A stretch of 64,000 nt of DNA from sequence record MK327941.1; one strand, given 5' to 3'. Source of the DNA: Escherichia phage vB_EcoM_G37-3. Every line of letters starts with the position of its first letter. Within the stretch, counting starts at the first letter, position 1. Position numbers and translations under genes: made by a program. The notes under the pieces are model-generated. The model was not told where the DNA came from. It searched no databases and worked only from the letters and a program-made list of their open reading frames with translations. Of the stretch, positions 8,837-14,266 are shown in pieces.

Positions 8837-9591
8837 TATAAACCTACCTTCGCTTTCATCAATTCAATCCACGACGCATCAATCGGAAGCCCGTATTTCA
8901 CGCGTTCTTTTTGTGCTGGCGTTAAGTTCTCATACTTAGAAAGAGATTCAATCAAAACGCTGGTATATTTTAGCACGATTTCGGTATTGTTTGCAATAGC
9001 CTTAAGTTTTTCTTCTTTCTTGTTGATTTCGCTAAGGGCTTGCTTGAGATCTGCAATTTTCTGATAACGTTCTTCCATACGGAAGAGAGTATTTTTAATC
9101 GCTCGCTCGGCTGCCTCTGCTTTCTCCGGTTCGTTGTGCTTTTTATGGCGCTCGATTGCTAATTTCTTTTCTTCGATTGCCATTTCCTGATTTTTGATGC
9201 GATTCTCGTTAAGTTCGATCCACTCGATGTACTTCGCACGTAGGGCAATTTCATCATCAGAAAGTTTACCGTTAGTTCCTAGTTCCTGGATCTCTTTAAG
9301 AGATTCGATAGTGTGATTGCCACGGAAAGAATTATATTTCAGTTTAACCGGAATTACATTGCCATCAACATATCCCAGATTGCAATCAATGCGCTCTAAG
9401 GAGAGTCCGTCATCACCTTCACCGAAAGCCTCACCGGAATAGACGCAATGAGTCTGTCGGTAAATGTTACGCACAGTGACTAAGCTCATAGAGAAGTCTT
9501 TGTTGCGACGTGAAGCACCAGCCATGATAGAGTTCAGACGGAAAACAACCAGAGCCAATTCTTCGTTAGATTTAAAAGCAAACAGTTTCAT
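8836..9591 (-). CDS. hypothetical coiled-coil protein (251 aa); at the T4 srd position
   Basis: ATG at 9591 behind AAGGAGAATCAATT leader; Srd assignment is positional only. Confidence 0.45.
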   Translation of the reverse strand: MKLFAFKSNEELALVVFRLNSIMAGASRRNKDFSMSLVTVRNIYRQTHCVYSGEAFGEGDDGLSLERIDCNLGYVDGNVIPVKLKYNSFRGNHTIESLKEIQELGTNGKLSDDEIALRAKYIEWIELNENRIKNQEMAIEEKKLAIERHKKHNEPEKAEAAERAIKNTLFRMEERYQKIADLKQALSEINKKEEKLKAIANNTEIVLKYTSVLIESLSKYENLTPAQKERVKYGLPIDASWIELMKAKVGL

Positions 9592-9616
9592 AATTGATTC
9601 TCCTTAGTTGGTATGT

Positions 9617-9648
9617 GTGTATTATTGTCTATCTGGTTTGTGCTGTCA
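9617..9648 (-). promoter_or_regulatory. sigma70-like early promoter (PeSL-like)
   Basis: TTGACA on minus strand followed by an A/T-rich -10 candidate; approximate. Confidence 0.4.
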
Positions 9649-9652
9649 ACAC

Positions 9653-10156
9653 TTAAATTAAAGAAAATTTGTAAATCTCTATCAGATCGCCGTTACACGC
9701 GTAAACTTCCTCGATCTCATCAAGGATCATGGTCGTCCCTGTCTTGTATATGCACTCTCGCTCATCTGCCAACATAGCATACAAAGACAGTCGAGTAGTC
9801 GGATTGTCATACTCTTTAGACACCACTCTGTCAATAGCATGTTCGTAATAATTCATGCAAGGCTTGGTAGGTTTTATTGCAATAATCTTTCCTGTTGCAT
9901 AAACATCGGTTGCAAAGTCCTCTGCGGTTGATTGCAGTGGCGTAAAGCTCATAGGACGCTCTACAACGAAAGAATCACCTACAATTAAGGTATCCAGCTT
10001 ACGGCCTTCTCTTTTGCTCACACCGCGATACAAGGCTTCGTGATGCACTAACCGTTCAGTCTTTTCAATCAATCCATTAAGGATCGACATATCGATATTT
10101 TCTTTAGAGTTCATCACTTCATCAATGATGTTAAGTTCTTCTGGTGTAAATTGCAT
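9653..10156 (-). CDS. putative ADP-ribosyltransferase (ModA/ModB-like)
   Basis: R (LYRG), S-x-T (MSFT) and E-x-E (ADEREC) in the order of the R-S-EXE signature; lies at the T4 modA/modB position. Confidence 0.45.
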   Translation of the reverse strand: MQFTPEELNIIDEVMNSKENIDMSILNGLIEKTERLVHHEALYRGVSKREGRKLDTLIVGDSFVVERPMSFTPLQSTAEDFATDVYATGKIIAIKPTKPCMNYYEHAIDRVVSKEYDNPTTRLSLYAMLADERECIYKTGTTMILDEIEEVYACNGDLIEIYKFSLI

Positions 10157-10157
10157 A

Positions 10158-10189
10158 ATAAAAAAGCCTCCAATCTTTCGACGGGAGGC
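10158..10189 (-). terminator. intrinsic terminator hairpin that also contains the downstream RBS
   Basis: Minus strand GCCTCCCGTCGAAAGATTGGAGGC then T6, immediately before ATG at 10156. Confidence 0.5.
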
Positions 10190-10237
10190 ATAATAAAACC
10201 ATTATAGAGTAGTGTCAATCACAAAGTGTATGTGATC

Positions 10238-10245
10238 TATAAATA
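10238..10245 (+). promoter_or_regulatory. T4-type late promoter TATAAATA
   Basis: Exact TATAAATA about 30 nt upstream of plus-strand HNH ATG at 10275. Confidence 0.6.
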
Positions 10246-10274
10246 AGTTTGTTAGACCTAAAGGAGACCACAAA

Positions 10275-11204
10275 ATGAACTATAAACGTATTTATGATAA
10301 CCTGATTGAACGTGCTAAGACTCGAACTATCGACGGATATACAGAAAAGCATCACATCATACCACGTTGTATGAATGGAAGCGATGATGATAGCAATCTA
10401 GTTAGACTCACCCCAGAGGAACATTACATTGCTCACCTTCTGTTAGTTAAGATTTATCCAGATAACAGTAAATTGGTTTATGCTGCAAATATGATGTGCG
10501 TTTCTTCTGATTCACATAATGGAGAAAGACAGTCAAATAAACGTCATGGTTGGTTGCGTAGAAAAATGGCAGAGGCACATAGTAAAAGAATCCGCGATAG
10601 AATGGAGAACGATCCTGAATATAGAGCTAAGGTTTCGGAATGGGCTAGAAAAATGGGTAAAGCTATGAAAGGAGTTAAACGAGGACCGGAATTTAGCAGA
10701 AAGTTGGCAGAAAGAAACAGAAATACCGTGATGAAAGAAGAAACTAAACGTAAAATCGGGGAAGCCAACAAAGGAAGGAAACGTACAGAAGAATATAAAA
10801 GAAAACATAGTGAGCGGTATAAGGGTGAAGGTAATCCGATGTATGGTAAACGAGGAAAGGACCATCCGGCATATGGTACTAAACCGTGGAACAACCAAAC
10901 ATCATTTGTTGAGCAGAAAGCATGGTGGCGTTTCGCTGGCATGTTCTATGACTGGTATCAGAGAGATATTGACCGTGGAACACATAAACGCCACGGCCAT
11001 AAGAGAATGTTAGACGAGTTAGGTTTTGTTGGTTGGCGAGAAAAAGAGCCAGCCGCAGCAAGACGGTCAATTGAGATGTTCGCTAAAGGCTGGAATCCTT
11101 ATGAAGACCAAGAATGGTTAGATTATGTTAATACCCGCTTTCCAAACGACGATAGTTTTCCGCGTTCTTCAACATATACAAGACAAACAGATCTTTCGCA
11201 GTAA
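10275..11204 (+). CDS. HNH homing endonuclease with NUMOD3-like repeats
   Basis: HNH motif EKHHIIPRCMNGSDDDSNLVRLTPEEHYIAH; repeats GNPMYGKRGKDHPAYG; GGAG RBS; only sizeable plus-strand gene in the region. Confidence 0.85.
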   Translation: MNYKRIYDNLIERAKTRTIDGYTEKHHIIPRCMNGSDDDSNLVRLTPEEHYIAHLLLVKIYPDNSKLVYAANMMCVSSDSHNGERQSNKRHGWLRRKMAEAHSKRIRDRMENDPEYRAKVSEWARKMGKAMKGVKRGPEFSRKLAERNRNTVMKEETKRKIGEANKGRKRTEEYKRKHSERYKGEGNPMYGKRGKDHPAYGTKPWNNQTSFVEQKAWWRFAGMFYDWYQRDIDRGTHKRHGHKRMLDELGFVGWREKEPAAARRSIEMFAKGWNPYEDQEWLDYVNTRFPNDDSFPRSSTYTRQTDLSQ

Positions 11205-11646
11205 GCCCCAACGCCAAGAATTTACACATAATGAAATGGAGTTGGTCGACGGCTTCTAGGTATGTTTCCAAACGATCCGCCTCTGATAAATCACTAAAGA
11301 GGCGGTTTCGTGCTTCCATATGATTGGCTTTCCAGTGTTTCCACACCGCGCTAGCGTCTTTCCCGTTAGACATACCACCCAACGCAGTATACAGTTCTCG
11401 TGTTTCATCGTCAAGCGCATTGTCATTAGCTCGAATAAAATCTAAAATCTCTCCACACGTTTTCAATTCGTCAATTTTTGCTACCCACGGACGGTCCTTA
11501 GACACCTGATCCTGCAACGCTTTTTGCATATTCATCATATGCTGGAACGGGTTATCGCCGTTGGCGATAATTTCTTTATATTTTTCTTCTGCAAAATTCA
11601 GAGTTTCCGCATTTACTAAGTGTGCACAAGAATTAAATTCTGACAT
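11128..11646 (-). CDS. 56: dCTP pyrophosphatase gp56 (MazG-like)
   Basis: 172 aa from ATG at 11646 (track start is GTG); size and N-terminus fit T4 gp56. Confidence 0.75.
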   Translation of the reverse strand: MSEFNSCAHLVNAETLNFAEEKYKEIIANGDNPFQHMMNMQKALQDQVSKDRPWVAKIDELKTCGEILDFIRANDNALDDETRELYTALGGMSNGKDASAVWKHWKANHMEARNRLFSDLSEADRLETYLEAVDQLHFIMCKFLALGLTAKDLFVLYMLKNAENYRRLESGY

Positions 11647-11660
11647 ATTCACCTCATTAA

Positions 11661-12689
11661 TTAAAATTTACAATATTTCATAAACCGCATTTTAGCCATC
11701 AGACCTTGTACGGTGTTCTCTTTGATATATTCCATGATCTGGTCGCGTGTAGCGCCCTCGTCCTGAATCATGGCGTTAACGTCTTTAGAATGCCACGGGC
11801 AACGGTCCCACAATACAATCTTTTCCCCTGCATTGATAAACTTTTCCAGTCGGTGCATTGTATCGGCAGACCGTGGTTCCGCATCAAGTACAAACACTCG
11901 CTGGTTTGGGAAAGGGATTTCATCTAATCCCAAAGTACCGCCAGTAATTGCACACCCGTTATCAATAAACAATGAATCGATCGGACCTTCTAAGAAATAC
12001 ACTGGCCTACTCGGATCGGCGCGTTCAAGACCATAGACCTTACTCGCTAACTCATGAGTTTTAATCGTCATATATTTGGTCTTTCCGTAATCCTTTCTCA
12101 ATGCTCGCCCCTGAATGGATTCTATCTTGTTCTCGCGGTTAAAGATAGGAATCACTAAACGCGGTTCAGGTTGTGGATTCTTGAAAGTATCAGCTTTAAT
12201 GTGATTTGCTACCTTTTGCCATTCTCTCGTGAAATACAGAAGATCCCATTTATCGTGGGGAATGCAACGATCACTGACATACTTTATTATAGGATGATTA
12301 GCCGGAAGAGTATCTAACCTCTCGCAGAAAGGCAATGTTTGCACTTTCTTAATCTCCGGCTTTTCTACCTTTTTCAGTGGCTTGAACGTGGTGTTCTTGT
12401 TGTCGCCTTGTTCCTTCCGTCGTTCCATAAGCCATTCCCTGAATAGGTCCGGCTTATATTGTTTAAGAAATTCACCTAACGGCTGATTGTAGTTACAGTT
12501 GAAGCAACCACAACGCAAACTATCCTTATAGGTATAGATACGGAATCGCGCTTGAGTATGATTTTTCTTTGAGTCACCGCAGATCGGACAACTACAGACC
12601 AGCGTAAATGAGCTAGTATGCAACCGTTTAAAATTTCGTTCGCCGTATATGGCTTTTTCCGCTATTTCATAATCTGCGTAGTAAATCAT
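11661..12689 (-). CDS. 61: DNA primase gp61
   Basis: 342 aa; zinc ribbon CPICGDSKKNH...CFNCNY; TOPRIM-like EGPIDSLF; C-terminus aligns with T4 gp61. Confidence 0.9.
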   Translation of the reverse strand: MIYYADYEIAEKAIYGERNFKRLHTSSFTLVCSCPICGDSKKNHTQARFRIYTYKDSLRCGCFNCNYNQPLGEFLKQYKPDLFREWLMERRKEQGDNKNTTFKPLKKVEKPEIKKVQTLPFCERLDTLPANHPIIKYVSDRCIPHDKWDLLYFTREWQKVANHIKADTFKNPQPEPRLVIPIFNRENKIESIQGRALRKDYGKTKYMTIKTHELASKVYGLERADPSRPVYFLEGPIDSLFIDNGCAITGGTLGLDEIPFPNQRVFVLDAEPRSADTMHRLEKFINAGEKIVLWDRCPWHSKDVNAMIQDEGATRDQIMEYIKENTVQGLMAKMRFMKYCKF

Positions 12690-12698
12690 AATAACCTC

Positions 12699-12902
12699 TT
12701 ATAGCTCAAATTTCATGAAAGTTCCTACACTTTCATTTTCATTCTCTCCGTTTTCATCTAAGCCAAATTTGTAGACACTACCATCTGGCGATGTGTAAGA
12801 GAATACACGAAAACGGCCTACCGAATCAAGTTCTGTAAATTCATATTCTTTTCCGGCTTCAAAAAGTGCATATGTGCTTTTAAGACATTTCATCGTAATC
12901 AT
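12699..12902 (-). CDS. hypothetical protein (67 aa)
   Basis: ORF with ATGA start/stop overlap to upstream mini-ORF. Confidence 0.45.
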   Translation of the reverse strand: MITMKCLKSTYALFEAGKEYEFTELDSVGRFRVFSYTSPDGSVYKFGLDENGENENESVGTFMKFEL

Positions 12903-13042
12903 TTAAGCGCCACCGACAACAGAATGAGAACTACACCAACATACATTGTGATCTCGGATAACTTTTCTGTTTTTGTTTTGTGTCCAGATAATCCGAAAAC
13001 AACAACACCGATAATAGCGGACAGCAAGCCAACGATAAACAT
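12899..13042 (-). CDS. small membrane protein (47 aa)
   Basis: Below track cutoff; two hydrophobic segments; ATGA overlap with next gene. Confidence 0.35.
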   Translation of the reverse strand: MFIVGLLSAIIGVVVFGLSGHKTKTEKLSEITMYVGVVLILLSVALK

Positions 13043-13049
13043 GATGATA

Positions 13050-13226
13050 CTAAGCACCGTCTTTCTCCTTTTTGCGTTTTTCTTTACCCGCTACACTAGG
13101 TCCACGATTGGTAATAGATCCGCTCGTTTCACCTGCTGCGATCTTCTCAGGATTGCCGCCAGCATCGCCAGCGGTCATATCTTCTTTGAGTTTATTTTCT
13201 TCAACAAACTGTTTAAATCCAATCAT
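13050..13226 (-). CDS. small protein (58 aa)
   Basis: Below track cutoff; ATGA overlap with stop of 13223..13600. Confidence 0.35.
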   Translation of the reverse strand: MIGFKQFVEENKLKEDMTAGDAGGNPEKIAAGETSGSITNRGPSVAGKEKRKKEKDGA

Positions 13227-13600
13227 AGAATAATCTCTTTCAGTAAGTCAACAATCTGGTCTTTCGTCAGTTTATCCTGATTCTCTACAATCTTGATAAC
13301 ACAAGCATTAACATCTTTTCGAGTCACGCGGGAGATCGTTTTAATACGATGAAACGGTTCGTAGAAATATACTGCTTCATTATAGAGCGCAGCAATTTTT
13401 CGACGCATTTGATCTTTATCTGACAAGAAAACAAGTGCTGTTTTATGACCTTCTACACCCGACACGTTATATAGTTCAGCAACACCCCAGCGACCTTCCG
13501 GTTCAATCATTCCGGCGTGTTTACCGTCGATAAAAATAAGAATATCTCCGTTGAATGCGGTTTTAAATGCTACATCTTCCGGCGTAATCATATTTTTCAT
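13223..13600 (-). CDS. hypothetical protein (125 aa)
   Basis: ATG at 13600 behind AAGGAG RBS. Confidence 0.5.
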   Translation of the reverse strand: MKNMITPEDVAFKTAFNGDILIFIDGKHAGMIEPEGRWGVAELYNVSGVEGHKTALVFLSDKDQMRRKIAALYNEAVYFYEPFHRIKTISRVTRKDVNACVIKIVENQDKLTKDQIVDLLKEIIL

Positions 13601-13630
13601 AATATAGTCTCCTTAGAGTTTCATTATAGA

Positions 13631-14266
13631 TCAAGCGAATGTAGAAAGCAAATGTTTTGTTTCTTTCAGTTGTCGTTCAAGATCTTTGCGTTTCTCTTTA
13701 AGTTGCATTTTAGCATTATTTCGCTGTTTTTCAACATCTTTATCAATACTCTTATTCCAGTTATCAATATCAGAATAAGTTGGCATACCCAATTCTAGAC
13801 CTAATGCGGTTGGATACAGGGTAACAGTCCATAAACCGCTAATCTTCTTAAATAGGTCGGGGTGTAGTGTACTATCTACATCTTCCGGTGTCAACTCTTT
13901 TTCTTCTTTCAGTGGTGGGATCTCGTCATATGGTTCCAGTGCATTTACTTTAATATCAGATACCTCATCAAAGAATCCGCGTACATCCGCAGGAAATACA
14001 CAAGCAATTTCCCAACCGTGATCACGCAGAGAAGTAATATTTTTCACTCCCCCGCCATGTGTGATGATTGATGTGACATTGCCATCAAGGTCCACCGAAT
14101 TTACGAGAAATGGCTTATCGTCTGTCAGATCATTATAAAACTGTGCTTCGGCTGTAGTCATCTCCAGAAACAGATCTCGGATCGGACGACCATCAGGTGC
14201 GTTACCTTCCTTGAGAGTATAAAAGCGACTTACGATCCATTTTGGCGGTAAAGCATTAGCGATCAT
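13631..14266 (-). CDS. hypothetical protein (211 aa)
   Basis: ATG at 14266 behind AGGAG RBS. Confidence 0.55.
   Translation of the reverse strand: MIANALPPKWIVSRFYTLKEGNAPDGRPIRDLFLEMTTAEAQFYNDLTDDKPFLVNSVDLDGNVTSIITHGGGVKNITSLRDHGWEIACVFPADVRGFFDEVSDIKVNALEPYDEIPPLKEEKELTPEDVDSTLHPDLFKKISGLWTVTLYPTALGLELGMPTYSDIDNWNKSIDKDVEKQRNNAKMQLKEKRKDLERQLKETKHLLSTFA

Follow-up and report, generated by a model that had tools for sequence, protein, structure and literature searches.

A Mob-type homing endonuclease gene of a Krischvirus, probably packaged with a resistant allele of its likely target, gene 56

Introduction

In a 64,000-nucleotide stretch of the genome of Escherichia phage vB_EcoM_G37-3 (MK327941.1; hereafter the window), a single gene faces its neighbors from the opposite strand and runs into the 3′ end of gene 56, the essential gene for dCTPase/dUTPase. 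The phage is a Krischvirus, an RB49-like, T4-type coliphage, and the window covers its early-gene region. What is this gene, and why does it lie against gene 56? A sequence-only reading of the window had taken it to be an inserted free-standing HNH homing endonuclease gene.

Mob-type endonuclease genes are textbook T4 biology, and the orthologue in phage JSE has been annotated as a homing endonuclease since 2009. The endonuclease genes of JSE were counted by Petrov et al. (PMC2993671). In the literature that we searched, we did not find the link to gene 56, the co-replacement of that whole gene or the parallel with T4 segF described. The element itself is ordinary, and the locus adds refinements to a well-understood phenomenon.

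Results

The locus

Positions 9600-11700 of the window match 58 phage records at 95-99% identity, every one of them an RB49 relative. The endonuclease ORF is intact and is the longest plus-strand ORF of the window (Table 1). The remaining plus-strand ORFs of at least 100 aa reach 183 aa at most, and most of them are nested within genes of the minus strand. PHROG searches with the five that minus-strand ORFs cover least gave no match. The endonuclease ORF is the only supported plus-strand gene in the window; the sequence-only reading had called it the sole substantial one in the first 63 kb. The region from 10157, the first base past modB, to 10274 is intergenic. The exact TATAAATA that had been placed about 30 nt upstream is there, ending 29 nt before the ATG, as is the proposed GGAG ribosome-binding site, and the 3′ overlap with the dCTPase gene, put at about 77 nt, measures 77 nt. 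The T4 gene order, modB ... soc, segF, 56, agrees with the sequence-only reading. The lack of soc that it noted is no evidence for an insertion, because genomes of the RB49 type are without soc as well, which is the usual condition in the genus.

Table 1. Features of the endonuclease locus in the window
Feature	Position	Strand	Description
modB (ADP-ribosyltransferase)	9653..10156	-	annotated in JSE and RB49; PHROG 832; conserved left flank, outside the mobile segment
Stem-loop followed by U-run	10166..10189	-	-15 kcal/mol; z = -3.6; 0 of 200 shuffles as stable
modB sigma-70-like early promoter	10190..10218	-	-35 TTGACA at 10218-10213, 17-nt spacer, -10 TATTAT at 10195-10190; 11 of 12 consensus matches
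Variable segment (cassette)	10219..11623		holds the late promoter, the endonuclease gene and gene 56 except its first 23 nt; delimited by blastn and pairwise alignment with RB49
T4-type late promoter motif TATAAATA	10238..10245	+	exact octamer
GGAG Shine-Dalgarno	10263..10266	+	8 nt before the ATG
Mob-type HNH endonuclease gene	10275..11204	+	309 aa; HNH core ~22-60, NUMOD3 167-192, C-terminal domain ~196-288
Antisense 3′ overlap of endonuclease gene and gene 56	11128..11204		77 nt; encodes endonuclease residues 285-309
Gene 56 (dCTPase/dUTPase), JSE-type allele	11128..11646	-	PHROG 173; intact
Right junction (crossover)	11624..11652	-	first 23 nt of the gene 56 ORF and ribosome-binding region, identical in all alleles
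Gene 61 (primase)	11661..12689	-	annotated in JSE and RB49; conserved right flank

Family and architecture of the endonuclease

PHROG 655, a family annotated as homing endonuclease, matches the protein over residues 1-300 at 1.4e-78. When Pfam was run on the single sequence, NUMOD3 scored over its cut-off and HNH under it (16.5 vs 21.4 bits). The HNH motif E-x-HH-x(n)-N-x(n)-H is present and intact as EKHHIIPRCMNGSDDDSNLVRLTPEEHYIAH, and in a profile of 49 homologues, residues 21-50, gYtEkHHiiPrCmgGsddksNlVrLtpeEH, align with the HNH motif of EcoKMcrA (McrA) at E = 9e-4, with weaker matches of the same profile to a group II intron maturase (E = 0.024) and Cas8-HNH (E = 0.056). Among the homologues, Glu49, His50 and His54 are invariant, and His26, His27 and Asn41 are conserved in at least 90%. 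In the AlphaFold (AF2) model, which has a mean pLDDT of 86, the HNH core consists of strands 24-27 and 42-45 followed by a helix at residues 47-60, at a pLDDT of about 97. Fold searches with the whole model returned weak HNH-domain matches only, a PDB search with the single sequence gave only spurious matches to sulfite reductase, and NCBIfam had no match.

Against the T4 proteins, blastp aligned the endonuclease with MobB (43% over 143 aa, 8.5e-32), MobD (33%, 1.8e-27) and MobC (57%, 2e-17). This similarity is limited to the N-terminal part, and the C-terminal half has no counterpart among T4 proteins. Like the T4 Mob proteins (MobA-E), the N-terminal HNH domain starts with MNY..IY..LI and contains E.HHIIPR...G.DD..NLV.LT..EH..AH. 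The C-terminal domain, in contrast, is missing from MobB, MobC and MobD, and is shared at full length by the homologues that adjoin gene 56 in other lineages and by those of the Ackermannviridae. Variability of this domain is itself part of the family description: the Mob family is defined by a conserved N-terminal HNH domain joined to a protein-specific C-terminal DNA-binding domain (PMC2790892), and a protein with a conserved N-terminal part and a C-terminal half unmatched in T4 fits that definition. Judged from its sequence, the protein belongs to the HNH (beta-beta-alpha-metal) superfamily and, within it, to the T4 Mob family of free-standing endonucleases. Its predicted architecture begins with an HNH nuclease at the N-terminus, continues with linker repeats of the NUMOD3 type and ends in a DNA-binding domain. 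The intron endonucleases of the I-HmuI type follow the same modular plan of HNH domain, NUMOD3-type DNA-binding repeats and C-terminal DNA-binding module, and have nicking activity; unlike these, the gene studied here is not encoded in an intron. Neither single-sequence nor profile searches recovered a PDB sequence match to I-HmuI.

The gene occupies the intergenic region between modB and gene 56, outside any intron or intein, with its own promoter motif and ribosome-binding site, and an Rfam search of positions 9500-12000 found neither an intron nor another RNA family. Together with the HNH and NUMOD3 domains, the match to PHROG 655 and the empty sites of relatives described below, this supports a free-standing homing endonuclease. 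Relative to JSE the gene has a dN/dS of 0.09, alike in both of its halves, with a dS of 0.66 in codons 1-110 and 0.14 in the rest. The full-length ORF of 309 aa is found in nine independent contigs. By these measures the gene is under purifying selection and appears to be maintained, not decaying.

Expression signals and the overlap with gene 56

The octamer TATAAATA is not enriched in the window (3 occurrences in 64 kb vs 5.7 expected), and its significance comes from its position and conservation, not from its count. It stands 33-37 nt upstream of the start codon in five lineages, namely the window, JSE, the metagenomic contigs L005 and L008 and Acinetobacter phage AB-Navy-v2, and in L005, L008 and AB-Navy-v2 the surrounding upstream sequence is otherwise unrelated. 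It is also kept in all eight of the metagenomic krischvirus contigs examined, and is absent from the 120 nt upstream of the Slopekvirus endonuclease gene. The 5′ leader of the gene is unstructured, its fold being no stabler than those of shuffled sequences. T4-type late genes have this octamer in the -10 position and no -35 element. From the conserved motif we infer late transcription of the endonuclease gene from a gp55-type promoter of its own, with the early genes around it read from the other strand. The T4 intron endonucleases, too, are typically expressed late (PMC2790892).

The stem-loop next to modB contains the modB Shine-Dalgarno sequence, is identical in RB49 and JSE, and likely terminates transcription of genes 61-56. 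Given the convergent orientation, the early transcripts of genes 61-56 would run antisense through the endonuclease gene as far as this stem-loop, and late endonuclease transcripts would run antisense into gene 56. We found no evidence of a regulatory role for this mutual antisense transcription. A terminator-like site on the plus strand at 11549-11573 was set aside as being at chance level (1 found vs 1.7 expected).

The same 77-nt overlap occurs in JSE and in all metagenomic carrier contigs. Elsewhere its length varies by lineage, with overlaps of 7 nt or 4 nt or gaps of about 23-25 nt. The last 21 residues lie past the end of the Slopekvirus homologue, no homologue aligns beyond residues 285-296, and the final 12 residues (298-309) are modeled as disordered (pLDDT < 50). 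With a varying length, an unconserved tail and a modeled disordered end, we rejected the overlap as a functional antisense device; the tail resembles read-through into the opposite strand of gene 56. Because the tail lies inside gene 56, any transfer of the whole endonuclease gene also replaces the 3′ end of gene 56.

A replacement cassette that includes gene 56

DNA identity to RB49 is 98.5% up to position 10218 and 100% from 11624 on, and is lost in between, which sets the cassette boundaries exactly at 10218/10219 and 11623/11624. Here 1405 bp stand in place of the 503 bp of RB49-type genomes, and in RB49 the empty site between modB and gene 56 measures 69 nt. The gene is therefore not a plain insertion, as the sequence-only reading had supposed, since the replacement cassette includes a foreign gene 56. 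The gp56 of the window is 98.8% identical to that of JSE and only 57% identical to that of RB49 (58% in nucleotides), while the flanks of the cassette are 98.5-100% identical in DNA. By this comparison, gene 56 of the window is foreign to its RB49-type backbone. We sought a donor of the allele among 5.8 billion proteins, where the nearest alleles other than those of the JSE type are only 67% and 65% identical. The contigs that encode these two lack an endonuclease gene at this site; what follows their gene 56 downstream is a Mom-like gene.

The left junction directly adjoins the -35 hexamer of the modB promoter, a strong one by its sequence, and the RB49 alignment diverges directly after TGTCAA. 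The modB promoter and the stem-loop together are a PeSL-type cassette; such promoter/stem-loop elements have been described for RB49 and phi1, in which they mediate the shuffling of modules (PMC2839356). The right junction is identical in six metagenomic contigs. The left junction varies and has at least three variants, those of the window, of JSE (with a 9-nt patch in the promoter spacer) and of contig L019. These differing left junctions suggest more than one recombination history.

Distribution among krischviruses

The interval between modB and gene 56 was compared among the relatives, as the sequence-only reading had proposed. A gene fixed here in every relative would have refuted that reading, but most alleles are empty: 56 of the 58 krischvirus records have an unoccupied site, and the endonuclease gene is present in two (one phage, JSE). 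The JSE orthologue, EpJSE_00015 (YP_002922087), annotated as a homing endonuclease, occupies the very same site, shares both the 77-nt overlap and the gene 56 allele, and is 95% identical in nucleotides and 93.5% in amino acids; it differs in its length of 306 aa, against 309, and in the 9-nt left-junction patch. The linkage of the gene to the diverged gene 56 is strict. In each of the ten listed contigs that encode exactly the JSE-type gp56, the convergent ORF adjoins it with the 77-nt overlap; nine contigs have all 309 aa of this ORF, and the tenth contig stops within it.

The non-carriers fall into two groups by their gene 56. Forty records have the RB49-type gene at 97.8% identity or more. 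About 16 have a third allele, which we call the MIZ6 type, at 77-78% nucleotide and 69% amino acid identity, with a divergence confined to the interior of the gene, from 34 nt after its start to 54 nt before its stop. The presence of this allele on a near-identical backbone indicates that gene 56 has been replaced recurrently, and that at least one replacement left no endonuclease gene. The MIZ6 type could represent a resistant allele or what remains of an earlier invasion, but equally a swap of gene 56 in which no endonuclease took part.

Divergence within the cassette is uneven. The window and JSE differ at 61 positions in 10200-10600 and at 20 positions in 11400-11600, with the center of the cassette nearly identical; the 5′ 400 nt, which hold the promoter and the HNH domain, are about 15% diverged from JSE, and the 3′ half about 2%. 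The metagenomic contigs have the reverse pattern, with a 5′ part like that of the window and a different 3′ part. By this uneven divergence, the window and JSE genes are mosaics of each other, and the cassette itself is recombining among its carriers. No paralogue that could explain the mosaic HNH domain was found in the window.

Homologues beside gene 56 in other lineages

The closest homologues outside Krischvirus are 36-44% identical in amino acids over the whole length, including the C-terminal domain. In Slopekvirus, in AB-Navy-v2 and in contigs L005 and L008, the homologous gene also converges on the 3′ end of gene 56, and the gp56 proteins of these gene-56-linked lineages share only 36-57% identity among themselves. 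On the far side of the endonuclease gene the lineages have unrelated sequence, and gene 56 is the constant neighbor. More distant homologues in the Ackermannviridae (Det7; JA15, ‘F-LimI’) lie after nrdB and the glutaredoxin gene, so the domain architecture is not intrinsically tied to gene 56.

Slopekvirus presents the presence/absence polymorphism in its simplest form. The gene is carried by 22 (phT4A and 21 others) of roughly 110-115 Slopekvirus-type records, as a clean 892-bp insertion that replaces 20 bp exactly at the gene 56 stop codon. Between carriers and typical non-carriers (Lemur, Matisse and KP27), the last 125 nt of gene 56 differ at 35 positions (28%), against a difference of about 1-2% outside this patch. 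The changes are mostly three apart, and hence mostly synonymous. The side away from gene 56 is common to carriers and non-carriers up to the junction; the diverged patch is found on the gene 56 side only. In two non-carriers, Satellite_ER45 and CRKPVQ_22, the patch is of the carrier type at 42-125 nt from the stop codon, and the sequence nearer the junction is of the non-carrier type. Such partial patches would be expected if co-conversion tracts can stop short of the endonuclease gene. Conversely, a sub-segment in one carrier, Prick1, has the bases of non-carriers. This pattern is what would be expected of a break in the target gene repaired from a carrier with co-conversion tracts of variable length, and the target would then lie 40-125 nt upstream of the stop codon of gene 56. 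In Krischvirus, with gene 56 replaced as a whole, the sequence gives no positional clue to the cut site. A comparison of gene 56 3′ ends across several genera, among alleles with and without the endonuclease gene, yielded no convincing common target site.

Discussion

A probable route of spread

Taken as a whole, the evidence makes it probable that the locus holds a Mob-type HNH homing endonuclease gene of the free-standing kind, which travels with an allele of its probable target, gene 56, that resists the enzyme. With nearly the same confidence, we think that the element is active or was so recently, that it targets gene 56 of genomes without the gene, and that it spreads by repair-mediated co-conversion together with the resistant gene 56. 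It would probably do so by intronless homing, in which that allele is co-converted. The endonuclease gene would be transcribed late from its own gp55-type promoter, as the conserved TATAAATA suggests, and in a mixed infection with an RB49-type phage that is without the gene, the enzyme would nick or cut in or near gene 56. On the model of SegF and MobE, recombination-dependent repair would then copy the endonuclease gene and the adjoining gene 56 from the carrier, whose own gene 56, being about 42% diverged in DNA, would presumably not be cut by the enzyme. Among the observations that count against homing, carriers are rare (2 of 58 records), and a highly efficient element might be commoner; and the left junction falls within promoter/stem-loop DNA of a kind that reportedly recombines by itself (PMC2839356). 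Mainly, it is the MIZ6-type allele that keeps our confidence from being higher.

Relation to the Mob and Seg endonucleases of T4

The gene resembles the T4 mob genes in being free-standing and intergenic in a T4-like genome and in a presence that differs between close relatives. Unlike them, it adjoins gene 56, and not the nrd, a-gt or rI regions. It also differs from mobE, which is promoterless and cotranscribed with nrdA, in being convergent to its neighbors and having its own predicted late promoter. MobE, the characterized member of the T4 Mob family, nicks at a distance from its own gene and mobilizes neighboring DNA in trans (PMC2790892).

The closest parallel in position is T4 segF. Both genes lie 3′ of gene 56 and overlap its end, by 11 nt in T4 and by 77 nt here, and here, too, the gene goes strictly with a diverged gene 56. 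The segF gene, in contrast, follows gene 56 directly on the same strand and is cotranscribed with it, whereas the window gene is on the opposite strand. SegF is also a GIY-YIG enzyme, from an unrelated nuclease family, with no significant similarity to the window protein (E = 1.3). SegF makes double-strand breaks, and Mob-type enzymes may only nick. Thus, with segF in T4 and an HNH gene here, two unrelated endonuclease families occupy the same site beside the same essential gene. By the account of Belle et al. (2002) given in PMC2330249, SegF causes localized exclusion of T2 gene 56 in crosses of T4 with T2.

Other explanations

The alternative that survives best, although we regard it as unlikely, is that the endonuclease gene is a passenger: the cassette would spread by ordinary homologous or PeSL-mediated recombination, the exchange of gene 56 would be unrelated to the endonuclease, and the enzyme might be inactive or act elsewhere. 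The junctions accord with such a course, the left one abutting the -35 box of a promoter/stem-loop cassette of the kind that shuffles modules in RB49 and phi1 (PMC2839356) and the right one being a 23-nt block conserved in all gene 56 alleles, as do the swap of the MIZ6-type gene 56 without an endonuclease gene and the low frequency of carriers among isolates. Shuffling of the cassette does not, however, readily account for a convergent arrangement of endonuclease gene and gene 56 that recurs in at least four lineages with unrelated flanks, nor for Slopekvirus, in which the insertion came without a cassette swap and yet has a sharply bounded diverged patch right beside the endonuclease gene. 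An inactive enzyme also fits poorly with an ORF under purifying selection in which the catalytic residues are intact.

Somewhat less probable still is an active enzyme with another target, which might be the modB-56 intergenic region or PeSL of empty genomes, or a distant site, with gene 56 co-converted as a neighbor; the enzyme could also be mainly a weapon against competing phages. The behavior of MobE, which acts far from its own gene and mobilizes its neighbors in trans (PMC2790892), sets a precedent, and the Ackermannviridae homologues, with the same domain layout after nrdB and the glutaredoxin gene, separate the C-terminal domain from gene 56. A target on the modB side or farther away is nonetheless at odds with the Slopekvirus patch, which is confined to the gene 56 side next to a far side common to carriers and non-carriers, and with the far-side sequences that differ fully between lineages where gene 56 is the constant neighbor.

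That the gene is the decaying relic of a homing endonuclease gene that has lost its function is very improbable, since a full-length ORF in nine independent contigs and in JSE, a dN/dS of 0.09 and conserved catalytic residues and promoter outweigh the antisense tail beyond residue ~288, with its unaligned and disordered end, and the precedent of truncated endonuclease relics in JSE and T4 (PMC2993671).

Implications

A broader proposal suggests itself, for which we put the chances at slightly short of even: a Mob-type HNH clade may have specialized on the 3′ end of gene 56 across Krischvirus, Slopekvirus, Acinetobacter phages and uncultured lineages, independently of SegF. The three gene 56 alleles on a 98-99% identical Krischvirus backbone would then be the footprint of an arms race between endonuclease and target, in which replacement of the whole gene gives immunity. 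Homing would also account for the hot spot of mosaicism at gene 56 in therapeutic RB49-like phages. The locus would serve as a natural example of intronless homing that carries an entire essential gene, and show how such genes reshuffle the essential genes of phages. Carrier, non-carrier and recombinant alleles are already present among isolated phages, in the pairs JSE and RB49, and phT4A and Matisse or Satellite.

Gene 56 alleles and cassette junctions in krischviruses

Among krischviruses that lack the endonuclease gene beside gene 56 (non-carriers), gene 56 occurs as two alleles, the RB49 type in 40 records and the MIZ6 type in ~16 records, the latter including Makalu_001/003, KFS-EC, TB34 and SSG23, among others. 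The MIZ6-type allele has an identity of 77-78% at the nucleotide level and 69% at the amino acid level; its flanks are identical, and the divergence is confined strictly to the inside of gene 56. One krischvirus backbone is therefore found with three gene 56 alleles, the RB49, MIZ6 and JSE types.

The left junction of the cassette, which comprises the late promoter, the endonuclease gene and nearly all of gene 56, is also variable. Compared with the window, JSE (L001) has 9 nt of the modB early-promoter spacer replaced at 10204-10213, with GATTGAGTT in place of ATAGAGTAG; here the window, unlike JSE, has the RB49 sequence. A further distinct junction, TGTCAACTATAAAG, is present in contig L019. 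As all three differ, the same cassette has at least three left-junction variants. The window and JSE also differ in two patches that contain 15-33 substitutions per 200 nt over a background of 0-7 per 200 nt. These patches represent additional mosaicism, without relation to the endonuclease gene. Inside gene 56, we observed one terminator-like hairpin, a count that is not above chance (1.7 expected).

Coordinates of features in the window and in compared sequences (L-numbers)
Feature	Coordinates	Strand	Location or remark
MIZ6-type gene 56, divergent segment	L032:924-1354 (phage MIZ6)		Corresponds to ~11180-11612 of the window
Mosaic patches	Window 12800-13100 and 13400-13700		Small ORFs and dc1 region
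Terminator-like hairpin with T-run	Window 11549-11573	+	Inside gene 56, downstream of endonuclease gene
Ackermannviridae homologues	L029:1986-2801 (Det7); L030:2001-2801 (JA15, 'F-LimI')		After nrdB and glutaredoxin, co-oriented with both
Mom-like gene region	L015:4019-4648; L016:1443-2075		Beside gene 56
Extra NUMOD4-matching ORF	L017:897-1325; L020:899-1453; L023:897-1325		Between gene 61 and upstream 67-aa ORF

Related insertions and other cargo

In Slopekvirus non-carriers, a 186-nt ORF lies directly downstream of gene 56. The Slopekvirus insertion (L003:2266-3157, compared with L004) takes the place of 20 bp, among them the beginning of this ORF, so that in carriers the small gene is lost or re-annotated. 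Homologues of the endonuclease with ~36% identity and the same domain layout are encoded by Ackermannviridae, and their position in Det7 and JA15 indicates that, in a phage family other than that of the window, relatives of the endonuclease colonised another locus of nucleotide metabolism.

At 65-67% identity, the gp56 alleles nearest to the JSE type come from phages (L015 and L016) in which a Mom-like gene lies immediately downstream of gene 56; Tad2-like and N6/N4-methyltransferase genes come next, ahead of modB. This set is a different cargo that occupies the same hot spot as the endonuclease gene. Near gene 61, some metagenomic krischvirus contigs contain an additional ORF of 142-184 aa with a weak NUMOD4 match, which is absent from both the window, where the empty site lies at ~12690-12698, and JSE. 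This ORF probably represents another polymorphic endonuclease gene, in addition to the one beside gene 56.
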